A stretch of DNA of 64,000 bases from a bacterium (GTDB lineage Bacteria; SAR324; NAC60-12). Below are positions 4,624 to 63,820 of this stretch, piece after piece. Under the pieces are notes generated by a model. That model was not told the origin of the DNA. It was given only the letters and a program-made list of their open reading frames with translations, and searched no databases. The stretch is from assembly GCA_965233585.1 (NCBI GenBank), contig CBDDTI010000746.1, positions 96,001 through 160,000 of the forward strand. The letters are read 5' to 3'. The translations under genes were made by a program, and so were the position numbers. Numbering within the stretch: position 1 is the stretch's first letter; each line of letters starts with the position of its first letter.

Positions 4624-5274
4624 CTACTTTGTACAGTATTTTTTATTTGGTATCAATTTGTTTTGAAATCTTGCTTGTGTTAGAAATAGACTAAATTGTT
4701 TTGAGTTTTTCATTTTCCTTGTACCTACCTGCTTTCCTACTAGATTTTGCAAACTGACAACGGCACCAAAAGGGAGAAAGACATCAAAAAATTTTTGATA
4801 ATGTTGTCCCCAGTAAATCATTGCACAAGCCATTGGAGCCCCTTTGCCTTCACTACTTCCATTTTCAAGAAATTTGAGACGAGTATCGTACAAAAAACAA
4901 ATCGCTGTAGCTTGACCCCAAATGTACTCTTTCCAGTGGCTTGTATTAGCAGCCACGGGGATCAATGCTATCACTTCGGAAGCAAATGTTTGGTAGGCAT
5001 GATGACATTTACCGAGCCAATGTTTGATGGTTGTCTTGCGTTCTCTATCTGCTCCGTAAGGAGGATTGACATAGATGGTCGGATAATTCCATTCTTCTAC
5101 TAATCCATTGTGTATTGGCAAAATAAACTCTTTTTTTGCATGAACTACTGACCATTGATTTGAGCAAGGATCTAAATCTATGAATCCCCCAAAGACTTGT
5201 TTGACTGCTTCAACATATTGAGCTGGTGTACACCAATCTACACTTTGAGCATTCACTGTCCTGCCTGCCGTCAT
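4624..5274 (-). CDS. DNA N6-adenine methyltransferase, phage Dam-like family
   Basis: DWCTP, FIDLDPC (SAM binding) and IYVNPPY (catalytic motif IV); short, 216 aa. Confidence 0.85.
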   Translation of the reverse strand: MTAGRTVNAQSVDWCTPAQYVEAVKQVFGGFIDLDPCSNQWSVVHAKKEFILPIHNGLVEEWNYPTIYVNPPYGADRERKTTIKHWLGKCHHAYQTFASEVIALIPVAANTSHWKEYIWGQATAICFLYDTRLKFLENGSSEGKGAPMACAMIYWGQHYQKFFDVFLPFGAVVSLQNLVGKQVGTRKMKNSKQFSLFLTQARFQNKLIPNKKYCTK

Positions 5275-29895: not shown

Positions 29896-30009
29896 TTTTA
29901 ATCTAAATAAATTGAGAGTTTTAAATAAAGAATGTTGTAAACCATTATCTACGGTTTGTTTTTTGCTTGGTATTCACTTCTTTTTTGAGGAGACCTTGCG
30001 ACAGACTTC

Positions 30010-30125
30010 CCAGACCCGGTGCAATAATATTTCGCTTCTCAGACGCAGGTCTCTTTCCTCTGCTTAGTGCTTCGCGTAAACTGATAACCGTATCCTTTAC
30101 ACTTATGACTCTGTTTTCCCCAAGT
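30010..30125 (-). mobile_element. Degenerate IS1-family insA remnant
   Basis: Minus-strand translation GKQSHKCKGYGYQFTRS then, across frames, RPASEK..YCTG, resembling the InsA N-terminus; locally GC-richer than the flanks. Confidence 0.5.
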
Positions 30126-30169
30126 GCTTACTATTTTATTAGTTATTAAGTATTTTATTTGTTTCTTTA

Positions 30170-30290
30170 CAGAAAATAGATGTCTGACTATTTCGTATCT
30201 GAGAGCCAAAACAAAATATTTGTCACAAGGGAATAATTTATCTACAATTCTTTGAATGAATAGAGTCAGAAAAATCTTTGAGAAGTCATT
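30170..30290 (-). pseudogene. 5' remnant of a third TIGR04372-like glycosyltransferase copy
   Basis: QRIVDKLFPCDKYFVL versus QKIVDKMFPSDRYIVI in the intact copy. Confidence 0.55.
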
Positions 30291-30297
30291 ACAATAA

Positions 30298-31329
30298 TTA
30301 AAATTTGATAATAGGTCTAAAAACACGATGATTTTCAAGATCATCTAAAGCTTGATTGATTTGATCTAAAGTATAGTATTGTGATATGAATCTTTGAAAT
30401 ATTGAAGATTTTTTCTCATAGAATTTTGCTAATTTAGGAATGTCATGATCAGGGAAGCAACCTCCACCATTAGTTCCTACTATCTTTTTTCCACATATCA
30501 GTTCAAAGGGATCAAGAGAAATTTGATCACCATATTGAGGATGAGATGCAAAAATACAAGTACCATGTTTTTTGTTGAGAATCGCAAAGGCTTGCTCAAT
30601 AGTTTTTGTAAATCCTGCAGACTCTATGGCATAATCTACGCCCAATCCACTGGTTAAATCTACAACTTCTGAAACAGGGTCATTACTGTTTGCAAAAACA
30701 ACATCAGCTCCTAAGTTTTTAGCAAAGTTTAGTTTTTCTTGAGAAACATCAATGACAATTCTTTGTCGACAAGGAAAAACTAGAGAAGTGATGAAAGCAC
30801 TCATACCAATTCCACCAAGCCCCCAAAAAGCTAAAATAGAATTTTCTTTGATTTCAAGTTCATTCAAAATGATTCCTGCTCCCGTTGGGATAGCACAACC
30901 AAAAAGAGCCGCTATGTCTAAAGGTAAGCCATTAGGCAAAAGCGTGCAACGATTTTCTGAAACCACAGCATAATTATTGAAGGTTGTCACCGCACCAGCA
31001 TTAACTTTTCCTAGTTTTTTATGATAGTAACTGATACCTCCTTCATCTAATCCACTTCCTTTAATCCAACCTAATATCACTTGGTCATCAATTTTTACTT
31101 TTTTTACTTTTTGTCCAATATCAATGACGGTTCCGCTGCCTTCATGTCCTAACAAATGAGGAAGATATTTGTTTTTTCCTCTTTTACCTCTAACTTCCAT
31201 CAACTGACTTTGACATACTCCTGCATACTCTAGTTTGACTAACAGTTGACCATCTTTTAGTTTGGGAATTTCAATATTTTCTAAGAGAACAAGTGATTGG
31301 TTGAACTGTTGTAGAATGGCGGCTTGCAT
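30298..31329 (-). CDS. Zinc-binding alcohol dehydrogenase (MDR family)
   Basis: GVC.S, LGHEG.G, GCAIPTG.G, GLGGIG. Confidence 0.88.
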   Translation of the reverse strand: MQAAILQQFNQSLVLLENIEIPKLKDGQLLVKLEYAGVCQSQLMEVRGKRGKNKYLPHLLGHEGSGTVIDIGQKVKKVKIDDQVILGWIKGSGLDEGGISYYHKKLGKVNAGAVTTFNNYAVVSENRCTLLPNGLPLDIAALFGCAIPTGAGIILNELEIKENSILAFWGLGGIGMSAFITSLVFPCRQRIVIDVSQEKLNFAKNLGADVVFANSNDPVSEVVDLTSGLGVDYAIESAGFTKTIEQAFAILNKKHGTCIFASHPQYGDQISLDPFELICGKKIVGTNGGGCFPDHDIPKLAKFYEKKSSIFQRFISQYYTLDQINQALDDLENHRVFRPIIKF

Positions 31330-31358
31330 AAAAATTTATATTCGTCTAAAAATATTGA

Positions 31359-32531
31359 TTATTTGTCAGTTAATGAATTTGCTTTAATAAAACTCACATA
31401 TTGTGTTCCTCTTCCAAATGCCGATTTGAAATGTTGTAAACCCGCTACATTAGCAGCAGTTACATTATCACTTTCAAGAATATGTATCAAGTCGTTTAAT
31501 GATTCAATTACAGCTTTCTGAGGGTTTTTAACTAAAATTTTTTTTATAGAACGTATTATTTCTAGTGCCTCTTCATTTAGATTTTCTTCATAAGATTCTC
31601 TTGCCTTATTAGAAATTTCATAAAAATAATTACAAAACCTTCTTAGGCGATCTAAATCATGCTTAGGCAAAGGATGACAATCAAAAACTTTATAATGAAT
31701 CAAGTTGTGCCATACATTGTAAAAATTTTCTATTTTTTTGTTATTGTAATCTTGTGTATTTAACGGTACTTCTTTAAACCAAGTATCATCTAAAATCAAT
31801 CTTGGGCATATATGATAAAAACTGTAGCTGTCTTGCAAAAATTTTATAGCATCAACAACAGAAAAAGTATATAGTCTAGCAGCCAAAAGATTATCTGCAC
31901 ACCAATTTTCTTTAGAACGAGATAATCCTTTTAACGTTTCTAAATGTGAACCAAAAGCATCAACCCCAAGTTTTATTTTATCATCAAAAGATTTCACTAC
32001 ATTTCTTTGGCATAATACACTAAATAAAAAATGCCTACATGCTTCAAAGAAAAAAGAAATCTCATCACAACAGTTGATAACTAAAACACCATTTTTTTTC
32101 AAATGAAGGTCTAACAACTTTAAGATATCAAAACTGTTTTCAATGCAAATCAGTAGATTTTCGCAAATAACAATATCAAATTTTTCAGATTCATCAAGCT
32201 GCTCAATATAAATATTTTGAATATCTATATTATTCATATTGACATTAAAATGATTAAAAGTTTTTCTACAATCTTCAAAAGCTATTTTATTTGGTTCAAT
32301 AAGTTTATAAAAAAAGGGTTTTATATTTGCAATATAAAGTGAATCATAACCAGGACCTGGACCTACTTCAAGAAGTGAACTTTTTTTGAAAATCTCAGAA
32401 GGTAAACCTAGAGATTCATAAAGTTTTTTTCTAATGTAAAGTTTTTTTGAAAGTTCTGATTGAGTTGAAAATCCTTGATATGAAGGAGATATATTGTATT
32501 TTTTATAATGTTTTGTTAAAGCATTCTCCAT
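31359..32531 (-). CDS. Class I SAM-dependent methyltransferase
   Basis: LLEVGPGPG, FDIVICE, LKKNGVLV. Confidence 0.75.
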   Translation of the reverse strand: MENALTKHYKKYNISPSYQGFSTQSELSKKLYIRKKLYESLGLPSEIFKKSSLLEVGPGPGYDSLYIANIKPFFYKLIEPNKIAFEDCRKTFNHFNVNMNNIDIQNIYIEQLDESEKFDIVICENLLICIENSFDILKLLDLHLKKNGVLVINCCDEISFFFEACRHFLFSVLCQRNVVKSFDDKIKLGVDAFGSHLETLKGLSRSKENWCADNLLAARLYTFSVVDAIKFLQDSYSFYHICPRLILDDTWFKEVPLNTQDYNNKKIENFYNVWHNLIHYKVFDCHPLPKHDLDRLRRFCNYFYEISNKARESYEENLNEEALEIIRSIKKILVKNPQKAVIESLNDLIHILESDNVTAANVAGLQHFKSAFGRGTQYVSFIKANSLTDK

Positions 32532-32556
32532 ATTTTATCCTTATTATTAGAAATGA

Positions 32557-33630
32557 TTAGAAATTTAAATTTTTAATGATCTCAATGACTTGTTCAATAT
32601 CTGTTAACTCCTGACTTGGTCCCGCAGGAAATATTAAAGCCTCTTGATCAAAAATATCTGCATTTTTAAAACTACGAGAAATATTAATATGTTTTGCTTT
32701 ATCGATACTCCCCATATCTCTACAACACATGACACCATTTTCATTTAAAATTCTAATGATTTTTTCCCTTTTGGGGGACAAAAAGATTGGTCTCATAGGT
32801 GTTTCTATTTCTGTATTCATTTCTAAGATTTTTAGGTAGGGGATGTTAGCTAAACCTTGTTCGTAAAGTTGATAGATTTCTCTTTGTCTTTGAACTAACT
32901 TTTCTATCTTTTCTATTTGATTTAAACCTATACTTGCATAAATATCAGAATATTTGAAGTTGTAAGACAAGCATAGAGGTTCAAATTCTTTTCTGACATC
33001 AAAGACTCCTTGATTTCTTATTCTAAGAAGCTTTTCATAATCCTTATCGTTATGGCAAACGACAAAGCCACCAGATACAGTACTAAAAACTTTAGTAATT
33101 CCTAGAGAAAAACAACCAAATCTTGAAAGAGTTCCCGCATAACTATCATTTTGTTTAGATAAAATAGATTGTGCAGCATCTTCAACAATATCTATTTGAT
33201 GTTTTCTAGCTATGTTCTGGATAGCTTCCATATTCACCATTTTTCCATTGAGGTGAACTGGTACTATAGCTTTAGTTTTACTAGTAATAAGTGTTTCAAT
33301 CTGATCTATGTTCATCAGCTGAGTTTCCTTATCGACATCTACACAGACAATTTTAACTCCTAAAATCATACCAGCATTGGCTGTTGCAATATAGGTTCTT
33401 GCTGGAATAATGATTTCATCGTATGGCTTAACTCCTATTGCCATAAAAGACATTGTCAAAGCAGCTGTACCACTTGAACAACAAACTACATAAGGAACTT
33501 TTAACTTTTTGGCTAGTTTTTGTTCCAGTTCTTGCGTCAACACTCCTTGAGTTACAGTTTTGTTATTGATTGCTTGAGTGAGGCAATTGATATCTGTCTG
33601 ATCATATTTGATGTTCCATAAATTTATCAT
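32557..33630 (-). CDS. DegT/DnrJ/EryC1/StrS sugar aminotransferase
   Basis: SSGTAAL, AIVPVHLNG, VEDAAQ, FSLGITK. Confidence 0.9.
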   Translation of the reverse strand: MINLWNIKYDQTDINCLTQAINNKTVTQGVLTQELEQKLAKKLKVPYVVCCSSGTAALTMSFMAIGVKPYDEIIIPARTYIATANAGMILGVKIVCVDVDKETQLMNIDQIETLITSKTKAIVPVHLNGKMVNMEAIQNIARKHQIDIVEDAAQSILSKQNDSYAGTLSRFGCFSLGITKVFSTVSGGFVVCHNDKDYEKLLRIRNQGVFDVRKEFEPLCLSYNFKYSDIYASIGLNQIEKIEKLVQRQREIYQLYEQGLANIPYLKILEMNTEIETPMRPIFLSPKREKIIRILNENGVMCCRDMGSIDKAKHINISRSFKNADIFDQEALIFPAGPSQELTDIEQVIEIIKNLNF

Positions 33631-33638
33631 TTTATTTT

Positions 33639-34364
33639 TTAATTTATAGAGATTGAACCATTATTTTTTAATAAACTTTCACTTCCAATCAAAGAAATAC
33701 CTCCATCCATAACTATTTCTTGACCTGTAATATAAGAACAATCATCAGATAGTAAAAAATTTAAAGCATTATAAATATCATCAGAATTAGCAATTCTTTT
33801 TAGTGGGCATAATTCTTTATATATTTTTAAATTTTTTTCTTGATTATAGTATTTAGCATTACTTGACTTAATACAAGAAGATGGAGAAAGCATATTGACT
33901 CTAATATTTTTTTCACCCAGATGTACTGCATAATATCTTACTAAAGATTTTAAGGCACTTTTAGCAACAGAATACGAAATAGGTTGTTCATAAATAAAAT
34001 ACTGAGTGACAATAGAACCAATGATTACTATAGAAGCATTACGATTCAAAAATTCTCTAATATTTTCCATGATTAAAAAAGTTGCCTTTACACTTATCTG
34101 GAACTCTCCTTCAAAAGATTTTTTAGTATCTCCTCTATATCGCTGAAAGAAAACAACATAATCTATTTGTTTTTCAGTAATCTTCTTCAAGATATCTTCA
34201 GTAGAAGATTCATTTGCTAAATTAACTTGATAATATGAAATATTATGATTATTTTCTACAAATTCATTACCTATAACTGAAATTTTTACATTATTATGCA
34301 GTTTTTTAACATAAACAGCTCCTAAACCTGTTGTTCCACCTACTATTAAATAGTGTTTTTGCAT
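33639..34364 (-). CDS. SDR family oxidoreductase
   Basis: GGTTGLG, YSVAK, IRVN, YITGQ.I.MDGG. Confidence 0.88.
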   Translation of the reverse strand: MQKHYLIVGGTTGLGAVYVKKLHNNVKISVIGNEFVENNHNISYYQVNLANESSTEDILKKITEKQIDYVVFFQRYRGDTKKSFEGEFQISVKATFLIMENIREFLNRNASIVIIGSIVTQYFIYEQPISYSVAKSALKSLVRYYAVHLGEKNIRVNMLSPSSCIKSSNAKYYNQEKNLKIYKELCPLKRIANSDDIYNALNFLLSDDCSYITGQEIVMDGGISLIGSESLLKNNGSISIN

Positions 34365-34388
34365 TTCAAATTGTTAAGTACTAAAAAA

Positions 34389-35068
34389 TTATTTCGGATG
34401 TATTAAACTCAAATTTTTTGCTGTAACAAAAGCATAATCTCCAGTATATTGGACATGTTGTAAAACTTTTTCCCATTCTTTTTTTGAAAAAATAGTCGCA
34501 CCCAATAAAGTCCACATTTTAAATAAATCAAACTCTTCTTGAGTTTCATAAGAAGCTAAAGTGATAAAACTTTTTCCTTTTCCAACTCTCTGAATCTCTT
34601 TTAAACAAGAAATACCATCAGCTAGATTGAGAGGATAAACAACGCCAATAGCTACAATAAAATCAAATTGTGCATTGCCAAACGAAAGTTTTTCATAACG
34701 TCCTGTTTGATATTTTTTTGGATAGAAAGCATCGCATGTTCAATAGCATAGCTAGAGATTTCATAACGTGAAAGTTTTAAATCAGGAAAAAGAGTTTTCA
34801 AATCATGCAACAAGAAACCTTTTTCACAACCAATTTGTAAAATAGAAGCATTTTTTGGAAGTGAATAGCCTTTCATGATTCTTTCAGCAAAGACTTTCCA
34901 GCGGCCATCATATCGGTATCCACCATACCCATCATTACGTTCACCATCGTAATACCTTTGATCACGATAAGAAGCAATGATTCTATTTTCAATGGTTCGA
35001 GTCTTAGGACTAACCAGTCTATGATTTTTAGGAGGTGGATAATCTTGTAATAAATTGTATTCTCCCAT
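34389..35068 (-). pseudogene. Class I SAM methyltransferase, frameshifted (paralog of 36054-36713)
   Basis: ORF 34652-35068 (GYGGYRYDGRW, IGCEKGFLL) continues after a frameshift near the A7 run at 34713-34719 as GRYEKLSF..FDFIVAIG..CLKEIQRV..YTGDY, to a stop at 34389. Confidence 0.85.
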
Positions 35069-35083
35069 TCTTTATTTTTAATA

Positions 35084-35257
35084 CTATATTAACATTAAAA
35101 AAATATTGATATTTAGAAGTAAAAAATTATCTTCAATATTATTGTTAGGATTAAACTTGATAAGATTACAGTGATTTTTCAATAAAGGTATTAAATCAGT
35201 TGCTACAGTACCTTTGTAACCACTTATTAAGACTTTTTTATTTTTGATGAAACTCAT
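35084..35257 (-). pseudogene. Truncated NAD-dependent epimerase (5' fragment, paralog of 38846-39673)
   Basis: MSFIKNKKVLISGYKGTVATDLIPLLKNHCNLIKF versus MSFIEGKKVLWNGFRGSVGSDLSFLLKDHCNLINF. Confidence 0.8.
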
Positions 35258-35274
35258 ATTTAGATTACAGCTAT

Positions 35275-36031
35275 TCAATTTGTGTAAGTTACTCCTTCCC
35301 CGTTATCTACAGGCAACATGCAACCGGCAAAAATATGAGAATTTTCAGAAATGAGTAATTGAATCAAAGGCATCAGTTGTGATGTGTTCATCACAGGTAC
35401 CGAATTTGGCAAATGTTCTTGAAACCATTTTTCATAGATATCTGGTTTGTTCTCTTTCAAACGATCCATGGCACTATTATGACCGAGAAAAGCACTAGGC
35501 ATAATTCCTGAAATTGTGACTCCGCGTGTACTCATTTCTCTACCTAGATATCTGACATAAGCAGCTAATGCTGCTTTCACAGTATTGTATCCAACTGAAG
35601 CCACTGCATAAGATGATGCGGTAGAACCAATATGCACTACATTTCCTTTTCGTTTTTCAATCATCAGAGGTATTAACGATTGGTTTAAAGCAATTCCTCC
35701 AGTTAAATTGACAGCGAGCAGTTGGTTGATTTCTTCAATAGTTAAAAGTGGTCTCCTCAAACCTAATCCGCCACCAGCACAATGAATAACATTATCAACA
35801 AATGGTGTAAATTTAAATAATTCTTTTTTAGCTATTGTAATACTTTTTTTGTCCAATAGATCTAGTTTGAGAACGAAATGATTGTATGGATTTTGAAAAG
35901 AAGAACGTATTTCTTCTAATTCTTCCAGAGATCGTGCTGCTAAAATTATGTGATACCCTTGTTGTTCAAAAAAAAATAGCACACTGCTTTCCTAAACCTC
36001 TGGAAGATCCTGTGATGAGCAGGGTTTTCAT
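35275..36031 (-). pseudogene. SDR oxidoreductase with a frameshift in a T9 tract (possibly phase-variable)
   Basis: ATG 36031 gives MKTLLITGSSRGLGKQCAIFF*; removing one T from the 9-nt run (35968-35976) joins it to EQQGYH...YNTVK. Confidence 0.85.
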
Positions 36032-36053
36032 TTATCAATATATCAAATAGATT

Positions 36054-36713
36054 CTAAGGAATAAACCAATAATAATCTCCAGTATAACTGGCTTCTTGAA
36101 AAAAAGTTTTCCACTCTTCGGTGTGCATGTAAGTCAGGCCTGTCAAATTCCATGCATTCATTCTTTTCTTTTCTTCGTTATTCCTATAAGCATCATTGAT
36201 GGTAAAAGCATCTTTTTTACTGACTCTCATCATTTCTTTCAGGGCTTTTTTACAAGCATCTTTTTCTAAATTATGAATCGTATTGATAGCAATCACCAAA
36301 TCAAAACTATTATCTTCAAAAGGCAAATCATCGGCACTAGCCACTTGGACAAAGTCTTTGATTTCTGCTTTAGCATTAGCAATAGCATACTCTGATATGT
36401 CAATCCCTCTGATTTCAAAAGTAGGATTATATTGTTTGAAATCATAAAGCATGAATCCTTTAGCACAACCTACATCTAAAATTGTTGCTCCATCTTGCAG
36501 ATCATAAAATTCTACAAAATCAGGCACTACTGGTTTCCAAAATCGTTCGCTATAATAATGCCCTCCATACCCTACTTTTCTGTCTCCATCAAAAAATTCT
36601 TGACCAAATTGTCTAGCAATTTTTCGATCTTCTTCTGTTTTTTCTTCAAGCCTTTGAGCTAGATCTCTTTTGGCTCTAGGATAGTTTTTCAATAAATTAA
36701 TCTCTTGTTGCAT
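36054..36713 (-). CDS. Class I SAM-dependent methyltransferase
   Basis: ILDVGCAKGF, GIDISEYA, LPFEDNSFDLV. Confidence 0.9.
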   Translation of the reverse strand: MQQEINLLKNYPRAKRDLAQRLEEKTEEDRKIARQFGQEFFDGDRKVGYGGHYYSERFWKPVVPDFVEFYDLQDGATILDVGCAKGFMLYDFKQYNPTFEIRGIDISEYAIANAKAEIKDFVQVASADDLPFEDNSFDLVIAINTIHNLEKDACKKALKEMMRVSKKDAFTINDAYRNNEEKKRMNAWNLTGLTYMHTEEWKTFFQEASYTGDYYWFIP

Positions 36714-36737
36714 GATTTTTTCTAAAAATTTGTGTTA

Positions 36738-37790
36738 TCAAAAGGGACCTTGAAACCAATCACCGGGAATATCATGGTGTTGATCTGATTTTAACAGAAT
36801 TTTTTCATCTAATTTCCAATTCAGCATCTCAAATACAGTATGAACAATATCATTAGCGTTTTTGTAATAATGCTTGCTCAAATAATAACTTGTAGGGCTA
36901 GGCATATTAGGAACAGCTAAAACACGAGGAGCAACCTTTAAATCTTGAAAACAGTGTTGACTCACTTTGGCTACAACCTCACTTGCAATACAAAAACTTT
37001 CATGCGATAAATCTACAGCTAACAATCTACCTGTTTTTTGAACAGAAGTTTTGATAGTTTCAAAATCCAAGGGTGATACACTTTTTAAATCAATCACTTC
37101 AGCATGGATTCCTACTTGTTCTAAAATTTGACTTGCTTTAAGAGATTCTAAAGCCATTAAAGAATAAGCCACAATAGTTATATCTTTGCCTTGCTTAACA
37201 ATTCTAGCTTGGTCTAAAGGAAGTTCAAAGTATTTGTCTCGTACTTCATCTTTGATGTTGTGTAACCAGCGATGCTCTAAAAATAAAATAGGATTAGGAT
37301 CAAAAATACTTGCCAGTAAAAATCCTTTTGCATCTGATGGAGTAGTAGGCATTATGACTTTTAACCCCGGTACATGAGCAAACAAACTTTGCAAAGATTG
37401 AGAATGCGTTGGTCCTTGTCCCCAACCTCTTCCAATAATCAAACGAATGGTAATAGGAACATGTGAAGCACCACCAAACATATAATGCCATTTTGCTGCA
37501 TTATTGACAAGTTGATCAAAGGCTAACAAAAAAAAATCTAACCTTTGATGGACAAACACACTTCTAACTCCATTCAAACTCGCACCTATGGCTATTCCCG
37601 TCATAGCATTTTCACTGCAAGGTGTGTCGAAAACTCTTGCTTTTCCAAAAGTTTCTTGTAGCCCAGTAGTAGTTCCAAAAATAGCTTTAGGATCAGGGAC
37701 TCCTAAACCATACACCAGCATATCACTATCTTTTTGCATAGCAATATGCAGTGCTTCATTGATAGCTTCAGCGAAGGTAATTGTTCTCAC
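36738..37790 (-). CDS. TPP-dependent E1 beta-like / transketolase C-terminal subunit (sugar-cluster type)
   Basis: RVFDTPCSEN, GQGPTHSQ, DPNPILFLEHR, SVQKTGRL. Confidence 0.88.
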   Translation of the reverse strand: MRTITFAEAINEALHIAMQKDSDMLVYGLGVPDPKAIFGTTTGLQETFGKARVFDTPCSENAMTGIAIGASLNGVRSVFVHQRLDFFLLAFDQLVNNAAKWHYMFGGASHVPITIRLIIGRGWGQGPTHSQSLQSLFAHVPGLKVIMPTTPSDAKGFLLASIFDPNPILFLEHRWLHNIKDEVRDKYFELPLDQARIVKQGKDITIVAYSLMALESLKASQILEQVGIHAEVIDLKSVSPLDFETIKTSVQKTGRLLAVDLSHESFCIASEVVAKVSQHCFQDLKVAPRVLAVPNMPSPTSYYLSKHYYKNANDIVHTVFEMLNWKLDEKILLKSDQHHDIPGDWFQGPF

Positions 37791-38770
37791 AACGCTTCTT
37801 GGAATAAGTGAGTGTAAATTTCACTTGGGGTTGGAAAAGGAGAAGACTGAGCAAAAGTAAAGGCATCATGGATTTCTTCTTGAATGTTATTTTCCATTTC
37901 CATCAAATCCTCTTGGCTCATGATTTGTATTTCTAAAAGTTTGTTTTGAAAATAACTGACAGGATCATGTTGGATCCAATCTTCAAATTCTTCTTGAGTT
38001 CGGTATCCTATGTCATTGTCAAAATTCGTTCCGCAGTGTTCTCTATGCCTGTAAGTATGAAATTCTAAAAAATAAGGTTGTTTCTCCTTTTTAATAAATT
38101 CCACTGCTTTTTTGCTTTGTTTCATGACTTCTAAAACATCATTACCATTGGCTTCTTCGGAAGTAATTCCAATCGCCTGAACCATTTCATGAATTTTTCT
38201 GTTCTTAGGTTGTCTCACAGCTAAAGGAGAATACACAGAATATAAATTATTTTCACAAATGAAAAGTACAGGTAAGTTTTGAAGAGCAGCAAAGTTAGCA
38301 CTTTCATAAAAAACTCCTTCTTCAGTGGCCCCCTCACCAAAAAAAACAGTTGAAACTCTATCCTCTTGTTTGGTTTGAATGGATAATCCCAATCCAACCC
38401 CAACTGGTATCGTGCCAGCCACAATAGCTGTACTTCCCATAAATCCAACTTTCGTATCTATCAAGTGCATAGAACCTCCCTTGCCTTGACAACAGCCTGT
38501 CACTTTGCCATAAATTTCAGCAATCATTGCTTTTAAACTTCCTCCCTTTGCTAAATAGTGAGCATGTGCCCTATGTCCAGACACTGCAAAATCATAGTCA
38601 CTTAAACTAGCACATACTCCAACAGCAACAGCTTCTTGACCTATTGACAAATGGGTAGGACAACGCATTTCTTGATTAGGATATTCTTTTACTATTTCTT
38701 CCTCCACTGCTCGTATCCGTTTGAGATCAAACAATAGAGTTTTTAAAGATTCTTGAGATGCTTGAAACAT
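37787..38770 (-). CDS. TPP-dependent E1 alpha-like subunit (sugar-cluster type)
   Basis: HLSIGQEA, HRAHAHYLAKG, GKGGSMH, FFGEGA...ENN. Confidence 0.9.
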   Translation of the reverse strand: MFQASQESLKTLLFDLKRIRAVEEEIVKEYPNQEMRCPTHLSIGQEAVAVGVCASLSDYDFAVSGHRAHAHYLAKGGSLKAMIAEIYGKVTGCCQGKGGSMHLIDTKVGFMGSTAIVAGTIPVGVGLGLSIQTKQEDRVSTVFFGEGATEEGVFYESANFAALQNLPVLFICENNLYSVYSPLAVRQPKNRKIHEMVQAIGITSEEANGNDVLEVMKQSKKAVEFIKKEKQPYFLEFHTYRHREHCGTNFDNDIGYRTQEEFEDWIQHDPVSYFQNKLLEIQIMSQEDLMEMENNIQEEIHDAFTFAQSSPFPTPSEIYTHLFQEAL

Positions 38771-38845
38771 AGTATCAATTAAAATTTTTATAGAATTACA
38801 ACTGAACGATGATATATCTTTTAAAAAGTTTTATTATGAATTGTA

Positions 38846-39673
38846 TTATTTCATCATAGTTGAATGCTTTGGAGAATTAGAAAAGAGTAAATCTGTCCAA
38901 TAATCTATAGATTTTTTAGCATCTAATGCTAGATCATAGTCTTTCATTAATTTATCTACACTAATACTAAAATGATTCAGATTTTCAGAAGATTGTATAA
39001 TTTGCGATTTAGATTGTAGTTTTTCTTTCAAATAGACGACTAAATCTAACAAAGTATATTCAACCGAACTAGCAAAGTTTAAAATGTCAAATTTTTTATT
39101 AAAATCATTGTTTAAAAGAAATTTAAAAATATCATATGGATTTACTAATAAATTAAATTTTTTCAAACTATTAGTTAAGATTACGTCTTGATTCGTAATA
39201 AGTTTATCCAATAATCTGAAAAATAAGTGAGGGTGGATATTTTTTTTAGAAGTAAGTATTGCCGGAAAACGCAGACATAAAACATTCATATCAACACTTT
39301 CTAACATCTTTTCACCCACTAGTTTTGTCAACCCGTATAAGTCAGGTGTGGATAAAGTATGTTTTTCATCAATATTTTCTTGGTTCGCACTACCATAAAC
39401 CGAATTACTTGAGAAAAACACAAAGTTTTTGATTTGATTTCTATCACAAAACCTAATAACGTCCTGTAAGAAGATAATGTTAGATTGTATTACCTTTTCA
39501 TAACTATGAACAGGACTTGCACCTGCTAAATGCAAAAAAATATCTGCTTCAATATTCTTGGCAGGGTCAAAATTGATAAGATTACAATGATCTTTTAACA
39601 AAAAACTTAGATCAGAACCTACAGATCCTCTAAATCCATTCCACAAAACTTTTTTACCTTCAATAAAACTCAT
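38846..39673 (-). CDS. NAD-dependent epimerase/dehydratase
   Basis: HLAG, FFSSNSVYG, YGLTK, LRFP. Confidence 0.82.
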   Translation of the reverse strand: MSFIEGKKVLWNGFRGSVGSDLSFLLKDHCNLINFDPAKNIEADIFLHLAGASPVHSYEKVIQSNIIFLQDVIRFCDRNQIKNFVFFSSNSVYGSANQENIDEKHTLSTPDLYGLTKLVGEKMLESVDMNVLCLRFPAILTSKKNIHPHLFFRLLDKLITNQDVILTNSLKKFNLLVNPYDIFKFLLNNDFNKKFDILNFASSVEYTLLDLVVYLKEKLQSKSQIIQSSENLNHFSISVDKLMKDYDLALDAKKSIDYWTDLLFSNSPKHSTMMK

Positions 39674-57412: not shown

Positions 57413-58354
57413 CTAATCCAACTCTTGTAAAAACTTTCTTTCTGAACTCAATAGCAATGTTACTTGGTCATTGAGGGTGGTACGATAAGCATCATGGGTT
57501 CTTAAAAACCTAAAAAAATCGGGGTCTTTGCCATAAGCCTTAGCGTAAATTTCAAGGGCAATCGCATCTGCGGCACCTCTGACTTCTTCTGCAATCCTTG
57601 TGGATTCAGACAAGATGTCTATTCTCTCTCTTTCCGCTTGGGAACGAATTTTTAGTGCTTCTTCATCTCCTTCAGAACGGTATCGTTTTGCATCTCGCCT
57701 GCGTTCTGCGATCATACGACCGTAAACGGCTTGACTGTTAGAAGAGGGTAAATCTGCACGCTTGACACGAACATCGGTAATATCAATGCCCAAATTTTTC
57801 ACATTCTCCCGAGAAGAACTCGTAATTTCTTCAATGATAGCTTGCCTCAAGATAGAATCATCAGAACGATTTTTCAACTCACTAAATGATGACTCGCCTG
57901 AAACAATCTCGCTCAAAGTATGTTTCCCAAGCACTCGCCTCACTTGTGAATAAATCACATCGTCTAATCGGGATTGCGCTGCTGAAATACTTCCACCTCT
58001 CATGGCTCTATAAAACACGAGAGGATCCACAATTTTCCACTTGGCATAATTGTCAACAGACATCTCTTTTTTGTCTTTGGTAATGACAGAACCAGGCTCT
58101 GCATCGTAAGTCAGCAACCTGTTATCCACAAGAAAAATTTTAGTAATCAGTGGAATTTTAAAATAAAGTCCGGGTTCTTTGTAAATCTGAACAGGGTCTC
58201 CCAGACGAATTTTGACAGCAAACTGCGTTTGGTCAACAATAAATGCTGACAAGTAAATTCCAACCACAACTAAAAACCCAAGGGCTAGAAAAACACGAGG
58301 ATCAAGACGTTTCAACCCACCTACAGTGCCATTAGATGACTGACTTTTTTCCAT
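57413..58354 (-). CDS. hflC: Protease modulator HflC (SPFH domain)
   Basis: PGLYFKIP, T.DKK...VD, DVRVKR.DLP, RM.AER, Y.KDP.FF.F.R; GGAGG RBS before ATG 58354. Confidence 0.9.
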   Translation of the reverse strand: MEKSQSSNGTVGGLKRLDPRVFLALGFLVVVGIYLSAFIVDQTQFAVKIRLGDPVQIYKEPGLYFKIPLITKIFLVDNRLLTYDAEPGSVITKDKKEMSVDNYAKWKIVDPLVFYRAMRGGSISAAQSRLDDVIYSQVRRVLGKHTLSEIVSGESSFSELKNRSDDSILRQAIIEEITSSSRENVKNLGIDITDVRVKRADLPSSNSQAVYGRMIAERRRDAKRYRSEGDEEALKIRSQAERERIDILSESTRIAEEVRGAADAIALEIYAKAYGKDPDFFRFLRTHDAYRTTLNDQVTLLLSSERKFLQELD

Positions 58355-58486
58355 AAACCTCCAAATAAAAATTTTCAAAAAATTAAAAAAGACCATTCTA
58401 TCAGGTTTTTAAAAAGAAATATACTTGTCTTTGTTTTGGATAACTTTCATAATTCCTTTGCCATAACCTTTTTATAAAAATCACAA

Positions 58487-60007
58487 ATGCGTTCATTTAT
58501 TACCCGCGTGAGCGTCTGCCTCATCGCATTTTTTGTCGTTGGGTTCATTGTTGGAAGCATCATGAGTCATCATTTCTCACAAGGAGGAGCGACTTCTTGG
58601 AGTTGGCAAACGGTTTCAGTGGGCTTGTTGATTATGTCACTCGTGAGCTGGGTGGTCGTTTACTTCTTTTGTGAATGGCTACTTGCTCCTTTGTTTTATT
58701 GGTTTCGCCGTGTTTCCACATTACCGATTGACAAAGTTGTTGGCTCTCCTTCCGATGTGAAAAAAACAACAGAATGGTATTTTTTAAGAGACCATTTCAC
58801 TTACATGAAACGAACCATTGACTCACAACATCGCGAACTGCAACAAAAAACTCTTGAAAGCCAAGAGGCACATCAGCTGAAAATAGACTTCATCAAAAAT
58901 ATGTCTCACCACCTAAGAACTCCCCTCAACAGCATGATTGGTGCTTCTCGTCTTTTGTATGAAGGAGAATCTACCCAAGAACTTCAAAAAATCGCTTTTT
59001 GCAATGCTCAAGACATTTCGGGGTTAGTTGAAAGTTTAATGACTTTAGCAGAGATAGATTCTGCCATGTTAAGATACTCTCCCCAGTGGACAAATTTCAA
59101 AGAACTCATTGACCAAGCACTCACAGAAGTCGTGCAAACAACTGGTCTCTCACATCAAGAATTACCTCTTCACTTATCTCCAAATCTTCCTCAAAGAACC
59201 TTTTATGACCCCGATTTATTGGTGCGTATGGTGAAGGTTTTAACTAGGACGTGCTTGCGTTCTTTTCCCAAAGGAGTCCAAATGATTCAGGCATGGTCTG
59301 ATGAAAATTCTTTTGCTTTTACTTTGAAAACAGAAGAGTTTGAACAAGACAACTTAGACCGACTGTTAGACCGATTCCCCAAAATCAGCTCTCAATATGT
59401 ACAACAATATCCGCTGTTGTCTGTCAACTTGTCTTTAGTGAAAGAGTTGGCAGAATTTTGCGGGGGGAATTTGCTGGCTTCCTCTATTGATCACAAAGGA
59501 TTGTGTTTAGAGTTGAGACTCCCTTTGAATCATACGACTGCAGATTCACAACAAGAAAAACAGTGGGATTTGTTTGAAGAATCTGAAGAAGACCTGAAGC
59601 AAGTAGAAATAGAACCCAAACAACTTGAGCCACACCACAAAATTCTGATTGCAGAAGACAACCGAGAAAACCAATTTGTCTTTGCACAATATCTAACACA
59701 CAGACCAGACCAAAGCTACGAGGTCATTTTTGCATCAGACGGAGTGCAGGCATTGCAAAAAGTGAGGTCAGAAAAGCCAGACCTTGTGATGCTAGACATG
59801 ATGATGCCAAACATGGGAGGCATTGAAACTGCTAAAAAAATCAGAGCAGATGCCAAATTCAAAGACATTCCTTTGATTGCTGTAACATCTATGGCATCAG
59901 GGGAAGATAGAGAGCAAATAGAGGGTTACGTTGATGCTTATTTAAGCAAACCTGTCATGGTAGAGGATTTATACAAAACTTTGGACTGTTATCTAAAAGC
60001 GAATTAA
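58487..60007 (+). CDS. Membrane hybrid sensor protein: HisKA, degenerate HATPase, receiver
   Basis: Two TM segments; MSHHLRTPLN H-box; no N/G1/G2 boxes; REC with AEDN, LDMMMP, VTS, KP. Confidence 0.82.
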   Translation: MRSFITRVSVCLIAFFVVGFIVGSIMSHHFSQGGATSWSWQTVSVGLLIMSLVSWVVVYFFCEWLLAPLFYWFRRVSTLPIDKVVGSPSDVKKTTEWYFLRDHFTYMKRTIDSQHRELQQKTLESQEAHQLKIDFIKNMSHHLRTPLNSMIGASRLLYEGESTQELQKIAFCNAQDISGLVESLMTLAEIDSAMLRYSPQWTNFKELIDQALTEVVQTTGLSHQELPLHLSPNLPQRTFYDPDLLVRMVKVLTRTCLRSFPKGVQMIQAWSDENSFAFTLKTEEFEQDNLDRLLDRFPKISSQYVQQYPLLSVNLSLVKELAEFCGGNLLASSIDHKGLCLELRLPLNHTTADSQQEKQWDLFEESEEDLKQVEIEPKQLEPHHKILIAEDNRENQFVFAQYLTHRPDQSYEVIFASDGVQALQKVRSEKPDLVMLDMMMPNMGGIETAKKIRADAKFKDIPLIAVTSMASGEDREQIEGYVDAYLSKPVMVEDLYKTLDCYLKAN

Positions 60008-60124
60008 CTTTGATGAGCGATAGGTTTTACATGAGTCACTACGATTGTTCACCAACTAGATTTAGCAAAGTTTTGAAAAAAAGCTCACCATACACAACGT
60101 GGAATTGCATTCGCTATTGATTTT

Positions 60125-61066
60125 ATGTCAGTTTCAAAAGACATTGCAAATTTGGAGAAGTACCAAGAGGTCATCTATCAAAAAATGATAGATGTCATTG
60201 CAAATCAAAAAAAGATCAAACATCTAATTGATAAGCATAAATTAGAAATAGAACAATGGAATAAAAAAATCATCTTGGCACAGCAATTAGGAGATGAATC
60301 ACTTGTAAATAGCGCATTTATCCAAAAGAATAAACTGCAAAATCATATTTTAGAATTAAATCAACAATTAGAACTTGACCAACAAGAACAAAAAAAATTA
60401 CGTGGTAAATATGACCAATTAAAATCTCAAATCAATTTATTGAAAATCAAAAAACGTCATCATGCCTCTCAACAAAAAATAGAACAAGAACAATCTCCAA
60501 AGCAAACAAATTTTTCAAAAAGTGGGCATCAGAATAATAGAAAGTCAGACAAGATTTTTAATGCAAAAAAGTGGAGACAAAAAGCCAGTCAAGTTAAATT
60601 TAGATATTTAGCTAGTATCGTATTGATTATTTTGACTTTATATGCAATTTTTTCTAATAAAAATGAAGGAGGAAGAATAGTAGGAATTGTAAATAGAGTG
60701 ATAGACGGAGACACCATCATTGTAAAAAATATGAGAGTTCGCCTATTAAATGTTGATACAGAAGAAAGTGTCCACCCTACTAGAAGAAATACAGAGTTTG
60801 GAAGGATCACATCAGCTCATGTCCGTCAAGAGCTAACAGGAAAAGAAGTACAGCTAGAATGTCATGGACAAGATGTTTACGGCAGGAGTTTATGTTATGT
60901 TTTTATAAAAAGCTGGTTGGGTCAAAAACTTTACAATGTTGAGTTAGTTCAAGACGGTTGGAGCAAATACTATACAAAATATGGTATATCCCAAAACTAT
61001 CACAGTGAATTTACTAGGGCAGAAAAACAGGCTAAAAACAACGAGATTGGCGTGTGGGAAAAATAA
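60125..61066 (+). CDS. Fusion of PspA/IM30-like coiled-coil hairpin, TM helix and thermonuclease (SNase)
   Basis: Residues ~1-110 carry the PspA pattern IANQK...W.KK..LA...GDE.L...A...K; TM YLASIVLIILTLYAIF; SNase motifs VIDGDT, VRLLNVDT.E, DVYGR, LV.DG, AE..AK....GVW. Confidence 0.8.
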   Translation: MSVSKDIANLEKYQEVIYQKMIDVIANQKKIKHLIDKHKLEIEQWNKKIILAQQLGDESLVNSAFIQKNKLQNHILELNQQLELDQQEQKKLRGKYDQLKSQINLLKIKKRHHASQQKIEQEQSPKQTNFSKSGHQNNRKSDKIFNAKKWRQKASQVKFRYLASIVLIILTLYAIFSNKNEGGRIVGIVNRVIDGDTIIVKNMRVRLLNVDTEESVHPTRRNTEFGRITSAHVRQELTGKEVQLECHGQDVYGRSLCYVFIKSWLGQKLYNVELVQDGWSKYYTKYGISQNYHSEFTRAEKQAKNNEIGVWEK

Positions 61067-61234
61067 AAAATACTTATTTCTTGAAACAATAGATTGTTGT
61101 AACCTACTCTACCGATAAACATAAAAAGATTTGGTGATAGCTAAAATTATATTTTTATAAACTTTCCATAGCTAACCTATCACTCAAATCATCATTTGAG
61201 CTTTTTTAATCAACCTTTTTCTATAATAAACTTT

Positions 61235-61705
61235 ATGTTACAAACAGGAGACCAAGCACCACTTGACATAGTAGTCAGCAATCAAGAAGGCAAAACTGCA
61301 TCACTTCAAGACTGGCTTGGAAAATACACAGTCATTTATTTCTATCCTAAAGATGACACGCCCGGTTGCACCAAAGAGGCATGCGGAATCCGTGATGATT
61401 GGGGTCAGTTTGAAGCGATGGGAGTTTCCGTTTTTGGGGTCAGCCCAGACGGAGCAGAATCGCATCAGAAGTTTATCAACAAATTTCAGCTTCCTTTTCC
61501 GCTGTTATGTGACCCTGAACATCAACTTGCAGAAGCCTTTGGAGCGTGGGGAGAAAAAAAGAATTTTGGCAAAACGTATCATGGCACTTTGCGTTACACC
61601 TTCATTCTTGATGCACAAGGTGTGGTTGTCAAAGTCTATCCCAAAGTCAAACCTGAAGAACACGCCCAAGAGTTGCTGCAAGATTTGAAAACTCTTATTT
61701 CCTAA
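61235..61705 (+). CDS. bcp: Thioredoxin-dependent peroxiredoxin Bcp/PrxQ
   Basis: YFYPKDDTPGCTKEAC, GVSPD, SH.KF; ATG at 61235. Confidence 0.93.
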   Translation: MLQTGDQAPLDIVVSNQEGKTASLQDWLGKYTVIYFYPKDDTPGCTKEACGIRDDWGQFEAMGVSVFGVSPDGAESHQKFINKFQLPFPLLCDPEHQLAEAFGAWGEKKNFGKTYHGTLRYTFILDAQGVVVKVYPKVKPEEHAQELLQDLKTLIS

Positions 61706-62217: not shown

Positions 62218-62502
62218 CTAAAGCAAAATTTCCCATTCAGAAGGTAAAAGGTAATGTTTGCTGCTGTTGCATTCTTTACAAGCAGGGACAACATTGGATT
62301 TGACGCTTTTGCCACCCCTTGAAATGGGGACAACATGATCCATCGTCAATGTTTTTGCTGCAAATTGTTGCTTGCAATAATGGCAGATGTTGTATGCCCT
62401 GCGGTTCTTCCACCATTGAGAGTTTCTTAAATCTCTTGCTTTACGTTTTTCTCTGGCAATGTGTTCTGGGTCTGCTACCTCAAAAAAAACAGAGTTTGTC
62501 AT
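62218..62502 (-). CDS. Small HNH endonuclease
   Basis: CHYC, TMDHVVP.SRGG, N.VPAC..CN; ATG at 62502 overlaps the leuD stop (TGATG). Confidence 0.88.
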   Translation of the reverse strand: MTNSVFFEVADPEHIAREKRKARDLRNSQWWKNRRAYNICHYCKQQFAAKTLTMDHVVPISRGGKSVKSNVVPACKECNSSKHYLLPSEWEILL

Positions 62503-63125
62503 CAGTGATTCAAGTCGTTCCAAGGTGTTTGGTGGATGCTGTTTTTTTCAAATTGTTCAATTTGTTCCAAAAATTGCAAAGTCCAACCAATCTCATCTAA
62601 TCCTTTCAACAATTTTTCTTTGGCAAATGAATCTACGTCAAAGCTAAAAAGGTTACCTTCAGGCGTCAATACGGTTTGCTCTCTCAAATCTACTTCTGCT
62701 TGAGCATGCTCTTTTGATTCAATTTCTGTGAATAGTTGTTGAATGTCAGCACTGCTTAATTTGATTGGTAAAATGCCATTTTTAAAGCAATTATTGTAAA
62801 AAATGTCAGCAAAACTTGGTGCTAAGAGGCAACGGAATCCGTAATCATGCAAAGCCCAAGGTGCATGTTCGCGGCTTGAACCACAGCCAAAGTTGTCTCG
62901 TGTGACAAGGATTTTTGCCCCTTGGTAACGTGGCTCATTTAGCTCAAACTCGGGGTTTGGAACTTCCCCTTCATCGTCAAGAAACCGCCAATCATGGAAA
63001 AGATGCTTGCCAAAACCTGTGCGTTCAATCTTTTTTAAGAATTGCTTGGGAATGATGGCATCAGTGTCCACATCAACACGGTTCAGCAATGCCGCAGTGG
63101 CTTTGAGGTGAATCAATGGAGTCAT
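62502..63125 (-). CDS. leuD: 3-isopropylmalate dehydratase small subunit
   Basis: DVDTD.IIPKQFL, NFGCGSSREHAPWAL, SFADIF.NN..KNG. Confidence 0.96.
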   Translation of the reverse strand: MTPLIHLKATAALLNRVDVDTDAIIPKQFLKKIERTGFGKHLFHDWRFLDDEGEVPNPEFELNEPRYQGAKILVTRDNFGCGSSREHAPWALHDYGFRCLLAPSFADIFYNNCFKNGILPIKLSSADIQQLFTEIESKEHAQAEVDLREQTVLTPEGNLFSFDVDSFAKEKLLKGLDEIGWTLQFLEQIEQFEKNSIHQTPWNDLNH

Positions 63126-63237: not shown

Positions 63238-63720
63238 GGCATTGTTAATTTAATATAGTTAATTGATGATTGAGCTTTAAGAACAAGAGTTTGAGAGAAA
63301 GTATCATCATGTCTTGAGATTTAGAATAGCATTTAGTTTTTCTTTTGAATCTAGCAAGGTAGTGTCTGATTCTATTGTTATATCCTTCTATTGTATAGGT
63401 TTGTTTTTTGTCTTGAATATGTAGATGAAGAGGTGGGAACTCACAGTAGCTTTTCCAATGGTCAGTATAAAAAGTCTCAACATGCCTAGTCTTCAGAGCA
63501 TCCCAGATCTTCAGACCTGTTTGAGTAAACCTGTCTCCACAGATACAAGTGATAAATCGCTTTGCAAATCTATCAACAGCAACCCATATCCAGCTGTAGT
63601 TTTTTTTGACCCCACAATAAGTATGAAGCTCATCCAATTCTACCACCTTGAAACCTGACCCTGATGCTTCTGGCACTAAATCTCCAGCAGCTTGAGCATA
63701 CTGCTTAATCCAGGTTGGAA
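63238..63720 (-). mobile_element. IS1-family remnant, 5'-truncated
   Basis: Terminal repeat GGCATTGTTAA at 63238, same as 26881; ELDELHTY..KKNY.W.W.AVDR, TD.W..Y, IEGYN.R.RHYLAR..RKTKCYSKS; zinc ribbon, HTH and second inverted repeat are missing. Confidence 0.88.
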
Positions 63721-63820
63721 TTGAAATGAGAGAAGAAATTGATGAATATTTTGCAAAATTCAAATGATTTATTTAGATAAGGATTGTAAGACTGTGAACA
63801 TTTAAAGCAAAAAATTCAAT

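Follow-up and report, generated by a model that had tools for sequence, protein, structure and literature searches.

A PspA-type hairpin joined through a transmembrane helix to a staphylococcal-type nuclease in a SAR324 bacterium

A stretch of 64,000 nucleotides from a bacterium of the SAR324 lineage NAC60-12 (GenBank assembly GCA_965233585.1, contig CBDDTI010000746.1, positions 96,001 to 160,000 of the forward strand) was examined in the present study and is referred to below as the window, with positions counted from its first letter. At 60125..61066 on the plus strand (stop codon included) it encodes a protein of 313 amino acids, hereafter the fusion, in which the hairpin of the PspA/Vipp1 family, the bacterial ESCRT-III proteins, is joined through a single predicted transmembrane (TM) helix to a staphylococcal nuclease (SNase) domain. 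Both domains are recognised by Pfam, and the same arrangement recurs in one orthologue, P0002. The combination of PspA hairpin, TM helix and SNase is a rare new one with a plausible mechanism, and we regard its architecture and topology, those of a single-pass inner-membrane protein, as very probable. Our best reading, to which we give a probability of roughly 0.4, is that of a type II anchored, Ca-dependent nuclease acting outside the cytoplasm, with the cytoplasmic hairpin serving as a docking or clustering module. An earlier note on this DNA, made from its letters, had described the same reading frame, which we recovered exactly, and had proposed that the protein docks onto Psp assemblies of the host where phage or other DNA crosses a damaged envelope.

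The N-terminal domain

Residues 3-122 of the fusion are a genuine H1-H2/3 hairpin of the PspA/Vipp1 type and not a generic coiled coil. The AlphaFold2 model of the N-terminus contains two long helices, residues 3-55 and 58-122, joined at G56-D57, with block means of the predicted local distance difference test (pLDDT) score of 97-98 over residues 11-100. The first helix (60131..60289, plus strand) aligns to H1 of Vipp1, the turn (60290..60295, plus strand) is present in both AlphaFold2 models, and the second helix (60296..60490, plus strand), corresponding to H2/H3, is supported in addition by Pfam and by Foldseek matches to Vipp1 and PspA. The turn lies within a conserved W..K..LA..LGDE.L motif, which aligns to 'KWQRNAQLALQKGDENLA' of Vipp1 when a two-sequence profile, made from the aligned N-termini of the fusion and P0002, is compared with the sequences of the Protein Data Bank (PDB).

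Searched alone, residues 1-115 match the Pfam family PspA_IM30 (PF04012) with an E-value of 7.7e-9 and 35.9 bits, the curated gathering cut-off being 33.9 bits, and residues 7-111 fall on profile positions 32-136 of 220; after PspA_IM30, other Pfam families appear only at E 0.02 or worse. Within the whole protein the match extends over residues 7-133 (positions 32-158 of 220) at 31.9 bits, the orthologue aligns in the same register (residues 5-119 on positions 29-143), and PF04012 is listed for both proteins in the precomputed Pfam annotation of the protein library. The NCBIfam model for PspA (TIGR02977) is also matched at E 2.4e-7; taken alone the N-terminus scores 30.7 bits, and the whole protein 26.6 bits. 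These scores are far short of the equivalog cut-off of 242.95 bits and give no indication of orthology to phage shock protein A. The N-terminal domain is PspA-derived, yet it is not a PspA.

Comparison with PDB entries leads to the same family. All 13 matches of residues 1-133 at E<=10 (phmmer, all PDB sequences) are PspA, Vipp1 or IM30, and the top 12 matches of the two-sequence profile are all Vipp1 or PspA (E 4.2e-8 to 7.8e-5), with the first unrelated entry following at E 0.07. HMMER places profile positions 10-111 on Vipp1 residues 35-136 without a gap, which, together with the Pfam match, agrees with the gapless alignment that had earlier been made by eye. E. coli PspA is a weak match in this search (E 0.17, as against E 4e-8 for Vipp1-type proteins). 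By structure, the first 16 matches listed by Foldseek against the PDB (ranks 1-17, rank 15 being absent from the list) are all Vipp1 or PspA, with E-values from 5.2e-4 to 2.4e-2 and TMq of 0.51-0.72; E. coli PspA(1-144) (PDB 4whe) superposes with a root-mean-square deviation of 1.8 over 112 columns, and generic coiled-coil hairpins such as that of PI3K p85 begin only at E 0.08. Among viral structures, Foldseek returned no match at E<=0.001 and generic helical proteins only.

Beyond the PDB, a word-index search with the two-sequence profile singled out one protein among 470 candidates, P0161 (257 amino acids, PF04012), at 44 bits and 26% identity over 147 columns (E 8.5e-6 on a scale of 5.8 billion sequences). 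On residues 26-160 of P0161, the part comprising H1-H3, the profile scores 43.1 bits, a value reached by none of 2000 shuffled sequences: the maximum was 7.0 bits for 1000 full shuffles and 11.2 bits for 1000 shuffles that preserved the heptad register, and the reversed sequence scored -1.9. The same kind of search with residues 1-135 of the fusion found the fusion itself as the sole protein. In the ESM Atlas, residues 1-155 and 1-185 gave best clusters of 0.90 and 0.81, with PspA_IM30 on 35% of the members, which we treat as a lead only. Between the fusion and P0002 the hairpin is identical at 60 of 122 positions (49%), and its best-conserved block is the tip, residues 40-60, with 14 of 21 residues identical. 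By Pfam, PDB profile, Foldseek and shuffles, the N-terminus therefore scores specifically as PspA; a score as a generic coiled coil only had been named beforehand as an outcome that would count against the note's proposal.

Parts of PspA missing from the fusion

The amphipathic, membrane-binding helix H0 of PspA is absent from the fusion, and so is the H4/H5 polymerisation arm, in whose place stand a linker, a basic stretch and the TM helix. This follows from three observations: residue 1 falls at about position 26 of the PspA_IM30 profile, equivalent to residue 27 of P0161 and just past the H0 that P0161 retains; the match ends at position 158 of 220; and residues 124-148 are predicted to be disordered (pLDDT below 50) and are poorly conserved. 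An in-frame TGA lies 16 codons upstream of the ATG start, with no ATG, GTG or TTG between, so the N-terminus cannot be longer and no H0 can be encoded; P0002, likewise of 313 amino acids, starts at the same position. The loss of both parts (there called alpha0 and the alpha4-5 arm) had been correctly read from the letters.

The flexible linker, residues 123-147 (60491..60565, plus strand), occupies the place of H4/H5 in PspA and is identical between the orthologues at 5 of 25 residues (20%). Its earlier description as basic fits the fusion, which has 14 K/R to 3 D/E, and fits the orthologue less well (10 to 7); only the juxtamembrane KKW.QK.S is conserved between the two. This motif, with 6 of 8 residues identical over residues 148-155, opens a basic juxtamembrane stretch at residues 148-158 (KKWRQKASQVK; 60566..60598, plus strand).

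What remains is the part by which the PspA/Vipp1 superfamily is defined, namely the H1 and H2/3 hairpin, as described in PMC7619361, where H5 contacts the hairpin of subunit j+3 and contact with the membrane is made by H0. E. coli PspA(1-144) is reported to be soluble, monomeric and PspF-binding, with oligomerisation needing the C-terminal part (PMC6003685). The isolated IM30 hairpin is described as a strongly fusogenic monomer or dimer that tends to dimerise and binds anionic membranes, and IM30 rings as needing helices 5/6 (PMC6374351).

Nuclease domain and membrane topology

Residues 185-313 (60677..61063, plus strand) constitute, as judged from sequence, a staphylococcal-type nuclease in which no Ca-binding or catalytic residue is missing, as had been proposed. 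Pfam SNase (PF00565) matches residues 204-312 at E 1e-18 and 68.2 bits (cut-off 21) over profile positions 1-106 of 107, and the alignment to chains of the S. aureus nuclease (E 6.6e-12) pairs DGDT, R-L-L, D-T-x-E and Y-G-R. The nuclease part is 78% identical (100/129) between the fusion and P0002. The predicted catalytic and Ca-binding core (60704..60766, plus strand) comprises DGDT 194-197, R206, D211-T212 and E214, aligned to DGDT, R and D-T-P-E of the S. aureus enzyme, and is completed by Y252-G253-R254 (60878..60886, plus strand), aligned to the S. aureus YGR and containing the putative second catalytic arginine. For the roles of these residues we take the S. aureus nuclease, with Ca-binding Asp/Asp/Thr and catalytic Arg/Glu/Arg, to be the model. 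The columns concerned are invariant in the fusion and 11 close relatives (12/12); across 167 aligned domains, DGDT, R206, D211-T212 and E214 are the majority residue in 128-161, and R254 in 162. Equivalog cut-offs of the NCBIfam models NucI (84.4 against 250 bits) and EcnA (47.6 against 180 bits) are not reached.

The fusion has one hydrophobic segment, the predicted TM helix at residues 159-177 (60599..60655, plus strand), in keeping with the single helix noted before; it reaches 1.96 in a 19-residue Kyte-Doolittle window (2.68 at residues 156-174 of P0002) and is part of an AlphaFold2 helix spanning 143-179. The topology is likely N-in/C-out, which places the hairpin in the cytoplasm and has the nuclease facing the periplasm or the cell surface, the orientation deduced previously from the positive-inside rule. 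Several lines of evidence point this way. Within 15 residues on each side of the helix, K/R to D/E are 5 to 0 on the N-terminal side and 3 to 1 on the C-terminal side (4 to 2 and 2 to 2 in P0002, with the window placement chosen by us). Relatives of the nuclease are mostly exported. We collected 160 proteins by similarity to the fusion, a similarity confined to the nuclease domain except for the fusion itself (P0001) and P0002. In 124 of them a hydrophobic segment, taken as a signal peptide or anchor, first occurs within residues 1-45; in 31 no segment passes the threshold used; and in five it comes later, namely in P0001, P0002 and three proteins that have it at positions 60-62. Cys246 and Cys257 (60860..60895, plus strand) form a co-occurring pair, both being present in 22 of the 167 aligned SNase domains, only the first in 2, only the second in 11 and neither in 132, and they lie on neighbouring AlphaFold2 strands (241-249 and 255-263, at low confidence) as a candidate disulfide. 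Finally, a long charged N-terminal domain is difficult to export without a signal peptide.

Distribution of the architecture

Only one further example was found. A word-index search with the fusion returned 12 proteins, with full-length coverage in P0002 alone (57-58% identity). When 1.84 billion representatives were searched exhaustively, 8,517 SNase matches at E<=0.001 resulted; among the best 150 of these, the N-terminus is matched by P0002 only. Pfam, run on 150 proteins (149 of the best 150 and P0003, with P0005 covered by precomputed Pfam, SNase only), detected SNase in 150/150 and PspA_IM30 in 1/150, namely P0002. The concern that homologues might be plain TM-anchored SNases thus proved half right: 148 of the best 150 are nuclease-only and have no PspA match, and P0002 keeps the hairpin, with the same length, the same junction, a conserved start and the conserved juxtamembrane motif. 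P0001 and P0002 are each a one-member cluster. A genome scan with the two-orthologue alignment produced 580 pattern matches and no relatives. With tblastn, the nuclease part was found in 18 phage records and in 1,823 plasmid records, of which 1,257 are conjugative, and the fusion architecture was absent from the 50,697 phage and 72,556 plasmid records searched, no place covering at least 80% of the query.

Two of the closest nuclease relatives, P0003 and P0004 (52-54% identity, 318 amino acids), combine a signal peptide with an N-terminal stretch rich in Cys and His and have, upstream of the matched SNase domain, a second stretch that contains DGDT; the P0003 cluster has 106 member sequences.

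In the 2024 survey of PspA by Ravi et al., >98% of about 2,500 homologues are given as single-domain and the remainder as tandem repeats or fusions with NlpC/P60 or PspAA (PMC11237479). The words 'nuclease', 'SNase' and 'thermonuclease' are absent from the main text and one supplementary file of that survey, the full list being provided in its web application. Our full-text literature search found no described fusion of PspA with an SNase or thermonuclease, so that the earlier statement that the architecture is undescribed stands within the literature searched.

The gene and its neighbourhood

The reading frame is intact over 313 codons and, as described before, the gene is AT-rich (GC 0.313) and stands alone, with gaps of 117 bases on the upstream and 129 bases on the downstream side. 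Its GC content at third codon positions (GC3) is 0.252, compared with 0.387 and 0.371 for the two flanking genes, 0.341 for HflC and 0.319 for IspH. It is equally low in the hairpin half (0.245) and the remainder (0.259), which makes the gene one compositional unit, and a unit that looks to be of foreign origin. A scan of 59900-61300 found four promoter-like sites (5.8 expected) and no terminators, and does not inform on co-transcription with the kinase or Bcp gene. A 13-nt inverted repeat (12/13 complementary) at 60014-60026 and 61174-61186 lies in both gaps and brackets the gene; about one such pair per 1.6 kb is expected by chance by our estimate, and it may mean nothing.

Upstream, on the same strand, lies a hybrid histidine kinase/response regulator (58487..60007, plus strand), and downstream a Bcp-type thiol peroxidase (61196..61705, plus strand). 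The immediate surroundings, which the earlier note had called ordinary, consist of IspH, HflC, this kinase, Bcp, a 101-amino-acid HNH protein, LeuD and an IS1 transposase remnant. Two hydrophobic segments of the kinase, 8-26 and 43-61, are about 16 residues apart and look like an intramembrane-sensing design, and HATPase_c is recognised in it only weakly (E 0.0035, under the cut-off). HflC (57413-58396, minus strand; 229 bits against an equivalog cut-off of 134) has no adjacent hflK, and upstream of it lies the hybrid kinase, transcribed divergently. A genome scan with the neighbouring IspH found 13 loci in Nitrospira and other metagenome-assembled genomes, with a best identity of 55%, and revealed no synteny. 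The stand-alone HNH endonuclease (62218-62523, minus strand), the start of which overlaps the leuD stop by 22 bases, matches Cas9d/IscB-type HNH at E 1.2e-11 and, in PADLOC, PDC-M01B/PtuB at best E 2.6e-8, over only about 50-75 residues. Directly upstream of leuD, at the expected place of leuC, an IS1-family transposase reading frame (63245-63763, minus strand) covers only positions 71-199 of the 199 of its NCBIfam model and represents either a remnant or, in a frameshifted gene, the second frame. The recurrent neighbours of PspA genes are given as Band-7 proteins, thioredoxin-fold proteins and two-component systems (PMC11237479); the neighbourhood of the fusion resembles these, which may be coincidence.

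The gene does not lie in a defence island. The neighbours are housekeeping genes, no defence-gene cluster surrounds the fusion, with only the HNH protein and the IS1 remnant nearby, and no PADLOC-DB 2.0 model matches the hairpin. Residues 188-313 do match the candidate-system model C3a212 SNc+LTD of that database (positions 49-178 of 279, E 1.6e-21), the LTD domain being absent from the fusion.

In the rest of the window, gene classes are housekeeping, flagellar, secretion, cytochrome-c maturation and sugar modification, including FlhA/FlhF/FliA, a type II secretion pseudopilin, CcmF/H, TatA and MinCD; tRNA genes were not found in the window. A run of sugar-modification genes (28639-39673, minus strand) encoding DegT-type aminotransferases, short-chain dehydrogenases, methyltransferases, E1 dehydrogenase/transketolase-like subunits and an epimerase has a GC3 of 0.12-0.25, compared with about 0.31-0.42 elsewhere in the window, and has the look of a surface-glycan cluster gained by horizontal transfer. 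Between a PmbA/TldD peptidase gene and a reading frame of 382 amino acids with no Pfam match there is a phage-type Dam N6-adenine methyltransferase (4624-5274, minus strand; PF05869, E 1.3e-14).

Possible functions of the fusion

In our preferred reading, the nuclease would cut DNA and RNA non-specifically with Ca2+ in the periplasm or at the cell surface, like Nuc2, and could be used for scavenging, for clearing extracellular or periplasmic DNA or for limiting incoming DNA. The hairpin would be unable to polymerise alone and would retain the core that receives H5 and binds anionic membranes. Because it keeps this membrane-active core and has lost everything required for polymerising by itself, its most likely role would be that of a docking or clustering module, keeping the nuclease at places where the cell has formed PspA-type assemblies of its own or where anionic membrane is under stress. 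The docking role, taken by itself, is rather doubtful.

Several observations weigh against this interpretation. The PspA_IM30 score of the whole fusion falls below the gathering cut-off (31.9 against 33.9 bits), and that of P0002 is lower still at 27.3 bits; the hairpin is less conserved between the orthologues than the nuclease (60/122 compared with 100/129); and the fusion is known from two sequences only, so that arguments from conservation are thin. The full-length AlphaFold2 model is poor in the SNase part, with pLDDT <50 in several stretches of 211-313, so the candidate disulfide and the domain geometry have to be read from sequence. No second PspA_IM30 protein was found among the 62 other open reading frames scanned in the window (55 + 7). 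E. coli PspA(1-144), moreover, is reported as soluble and monomeric, and its known partner is PspF and not a polymer (PMC6003685).

The main alternative, quite possible if short of probable, is an ordinary anchored nuclease for nutrients or extracellular DNA that has reused the hairpin as a generic coiled coil (a dimeriser, spacer or topology plug), with no link to the Psp system. The closest nuclease relatives of the fusion are plain SNases with signal peptides or TM anchors, as the 148 of the best 150 matches free of PspA illustrate; 'thermonuclease family proteins' of TM-plus-SNase type are common on plasmids (1823 records, none with the hairpin); the hairpin, at 49% identity, has changed faster than the nuclease, at 78%; and H0 and H4/H5, required for PspA function, are lost. 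A tendency to dimerise, as reported for the isolated IM30 hairpin (PMC6374351), would suit such reuse as well. The tip signature, on the other hand, is the best-kept part of the hairpin (14/21) and still matches Vipp1 at E 4e-8, which argues against a mere spacer, since a spacer would be expected to lose it. SNase is established to act as a monomer, and dimerisation would thus have no obvious catalytic use.

If the docking reading is extended across the envelope, cytoplasmic stress polymers of the PspA type, assembled at a breach or invasion of the inner membrane, would capture the hairpin, itself devoid of H0 and H5, through their own H5 arms, and the periplasmic nuclease, thereby concentrated opposite the lesion, would cut nucleic acid that crosses or leaks there, whether of phage, plasmid or transforming origin. 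We consider this improbable. The related proposal of the earlier note, a dedicated anti-phage or anti-plasmid nuclease docked on Psp assemblies at envelope lesions and DNA-entry sites, seems to us an equally long shot: its anatomy holds up and its topology is probable, and nothing in the analysis directly supports docking at such sites or an anti-phage role. The architecture would suit such a device, and the composition of the gene (GC3 0.252 against 0.37-0.39 in the flanking genes) suggests horizontal acquisition; the SNase part matches the PADLOC nuclease of C3a212 SNc+LTD (E 1.6e-21), and a small HNH gene and the IS1 remnant lie 1.2-2.2 kb downstream. The PADLOC match, however, concerns the nuclease part and leaves the hairpin unmatched, the gene lies among IspH, HflC, the hybrid histidine kinase, Bcp and LeuD and not in a defence island, and the architecture is absent from the phage and plasmid records. 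A periplasmic nuclease would have poor access to phage DNA, normally passed through a closed conduit, as is well established, and the rarity of the fusion, with two sequences, speaks against a successful defence module.

A regulatory decoy or sensor is less probable again; here a PspF-like regulator, or else the adjacent hybrid kinase, would be bound by the tethered hairpin, coupling a state of signalling to the envelope, and the nuclease would be a passenger or an extracellular DNA sensor. The PspF-binding regulatory domain of E. coli is PspA(1-144) (PMC6003685), two-component systems are a known gene context of PspA (PMC11237479), and the hybrid kinase with its two N-terminal hydrophobic segments lies 117 bases upstream on the same strand. 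The hairpin, however, resembles the Vipp1 type (E 4e-8) much more closely than it does E. coli PspA (E 0.17), a scan of 62 other open reading frames of the window showed no sigma-54 activator, and the complete catalytic set favours a working enzyme over a sensor.

Hardly credible is the opposite topology, with a Ca-gated suicide nuclease in the cytoplasm that is inactive at low Ca2+ and fires when the membrane is breached. Membrane breach is a theme of PspA biology and SNase is established to require Ca2+, as is reported also for Nuc2 (PMC3994088). Against this stand the charge bias in favour of N-in, the export of the relatives, the co-occurring Cys pair, which suggests an oxidising compartment, and the N-terminal domain, whose 158 residues are highly charged and which, having no signal peptide, is by established knowledge unlikely to be translocated. 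A decaying gene or artefact, either a truncated pspA fused by chance to a TM-SNase gene or a chimera made in assembly, might be suspected from the two known sequences and the atypical composition, and is just as hard to credit given the intact frame and catalytic residues, the equally low GC3 of both halves (0.245 and 0.259) and an independent orthologue with the same length, junction, start and juxtamembrane motif.

The interest of the docking reading lies in what the fusion has kept. PspA and Vipp1 are nearly always single-domain, and here only the hairpin that defines ESCRT-III and receives H5 is retained and tied across the membrane to an enzyme, a natural experiment that offers a handle for asking what the isolated hairpin recognises. 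If the hairpin still contacts Psp assemblies, this would be the first case in which polymers resembling ESCRT-III direct a cargo enzyme that lies across a bacterial membrane from them, and coupling across the envelope, if true, would amount to a nuclease addressed by membrane stress, a kind of effector undescribed for any Psp or ESCRT-III system. If the hairpin has no link to Psp, it would show how easily this hairpin can be put to new use as a simple module in the cytoplasm. In any case, the general importance of the fusion is limited by its rarity.

Comparison with known systems

With PspA and Vipp1 (IM30; PF04012) the fusion shares the H1-H2/3 hairpin, both by sequence (E 4e-8, gapless over about 100 residues) and by predicted fold (TMq up to 0.72), and it keeps the W...LA...GDE.LA turn motif. 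Unlike them it has neither H0 nor H4/H5, uses a C-terminal TM helix in place of H0 as its tether, and carries a predicted extracytoplasmic enzyme. Rings or rods are not expected from the fusion alone, given that these proteins are reported to need their C-terminal part for oligomerisation (PMC6003685; PMC6374351). Roughly the same portion of the fold, the hairpin only, is present in E. coli PspA(1-144) (4whe) and in the isolated IM30 hairpin; these are laboratory truncations that still have H0, whereas the fusion is a natural hairpin lacking H0 and joined to other domains.

On the nuclease side, the fusion has in common with S. aureus Nuc and Nuc2 and the 'thermonuclease family proteins' of plasmids both the SNase fold and all the catalytic and Ca-binding residues. 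Nuc2 of S. aureus is described as a Ca-dependent nuclease of the type II signal-anchored kind whose C-terminus is outside (PMC3994088), and in the fusion, too, a membrane anchor precedes a C-terminal nuclease for which an outward orientation is predicted. The anchor of Nuc- and Nuc2-type proteins, however, is at the extreme N-terminus, whereas that of the fusion lies at residues 159-177, behind 158 residues predicted to be cytoplasmic. The rare PspA fusions described by Ravi et al. (NlpC/P60, PspAA and tandem forms; PMC11237479) provide the nearest parallel for a PspA module joined to a hydrolase; in contrast to those, the partner here is a nuclease across the membrane, and of PspA only the hairpin is retained.

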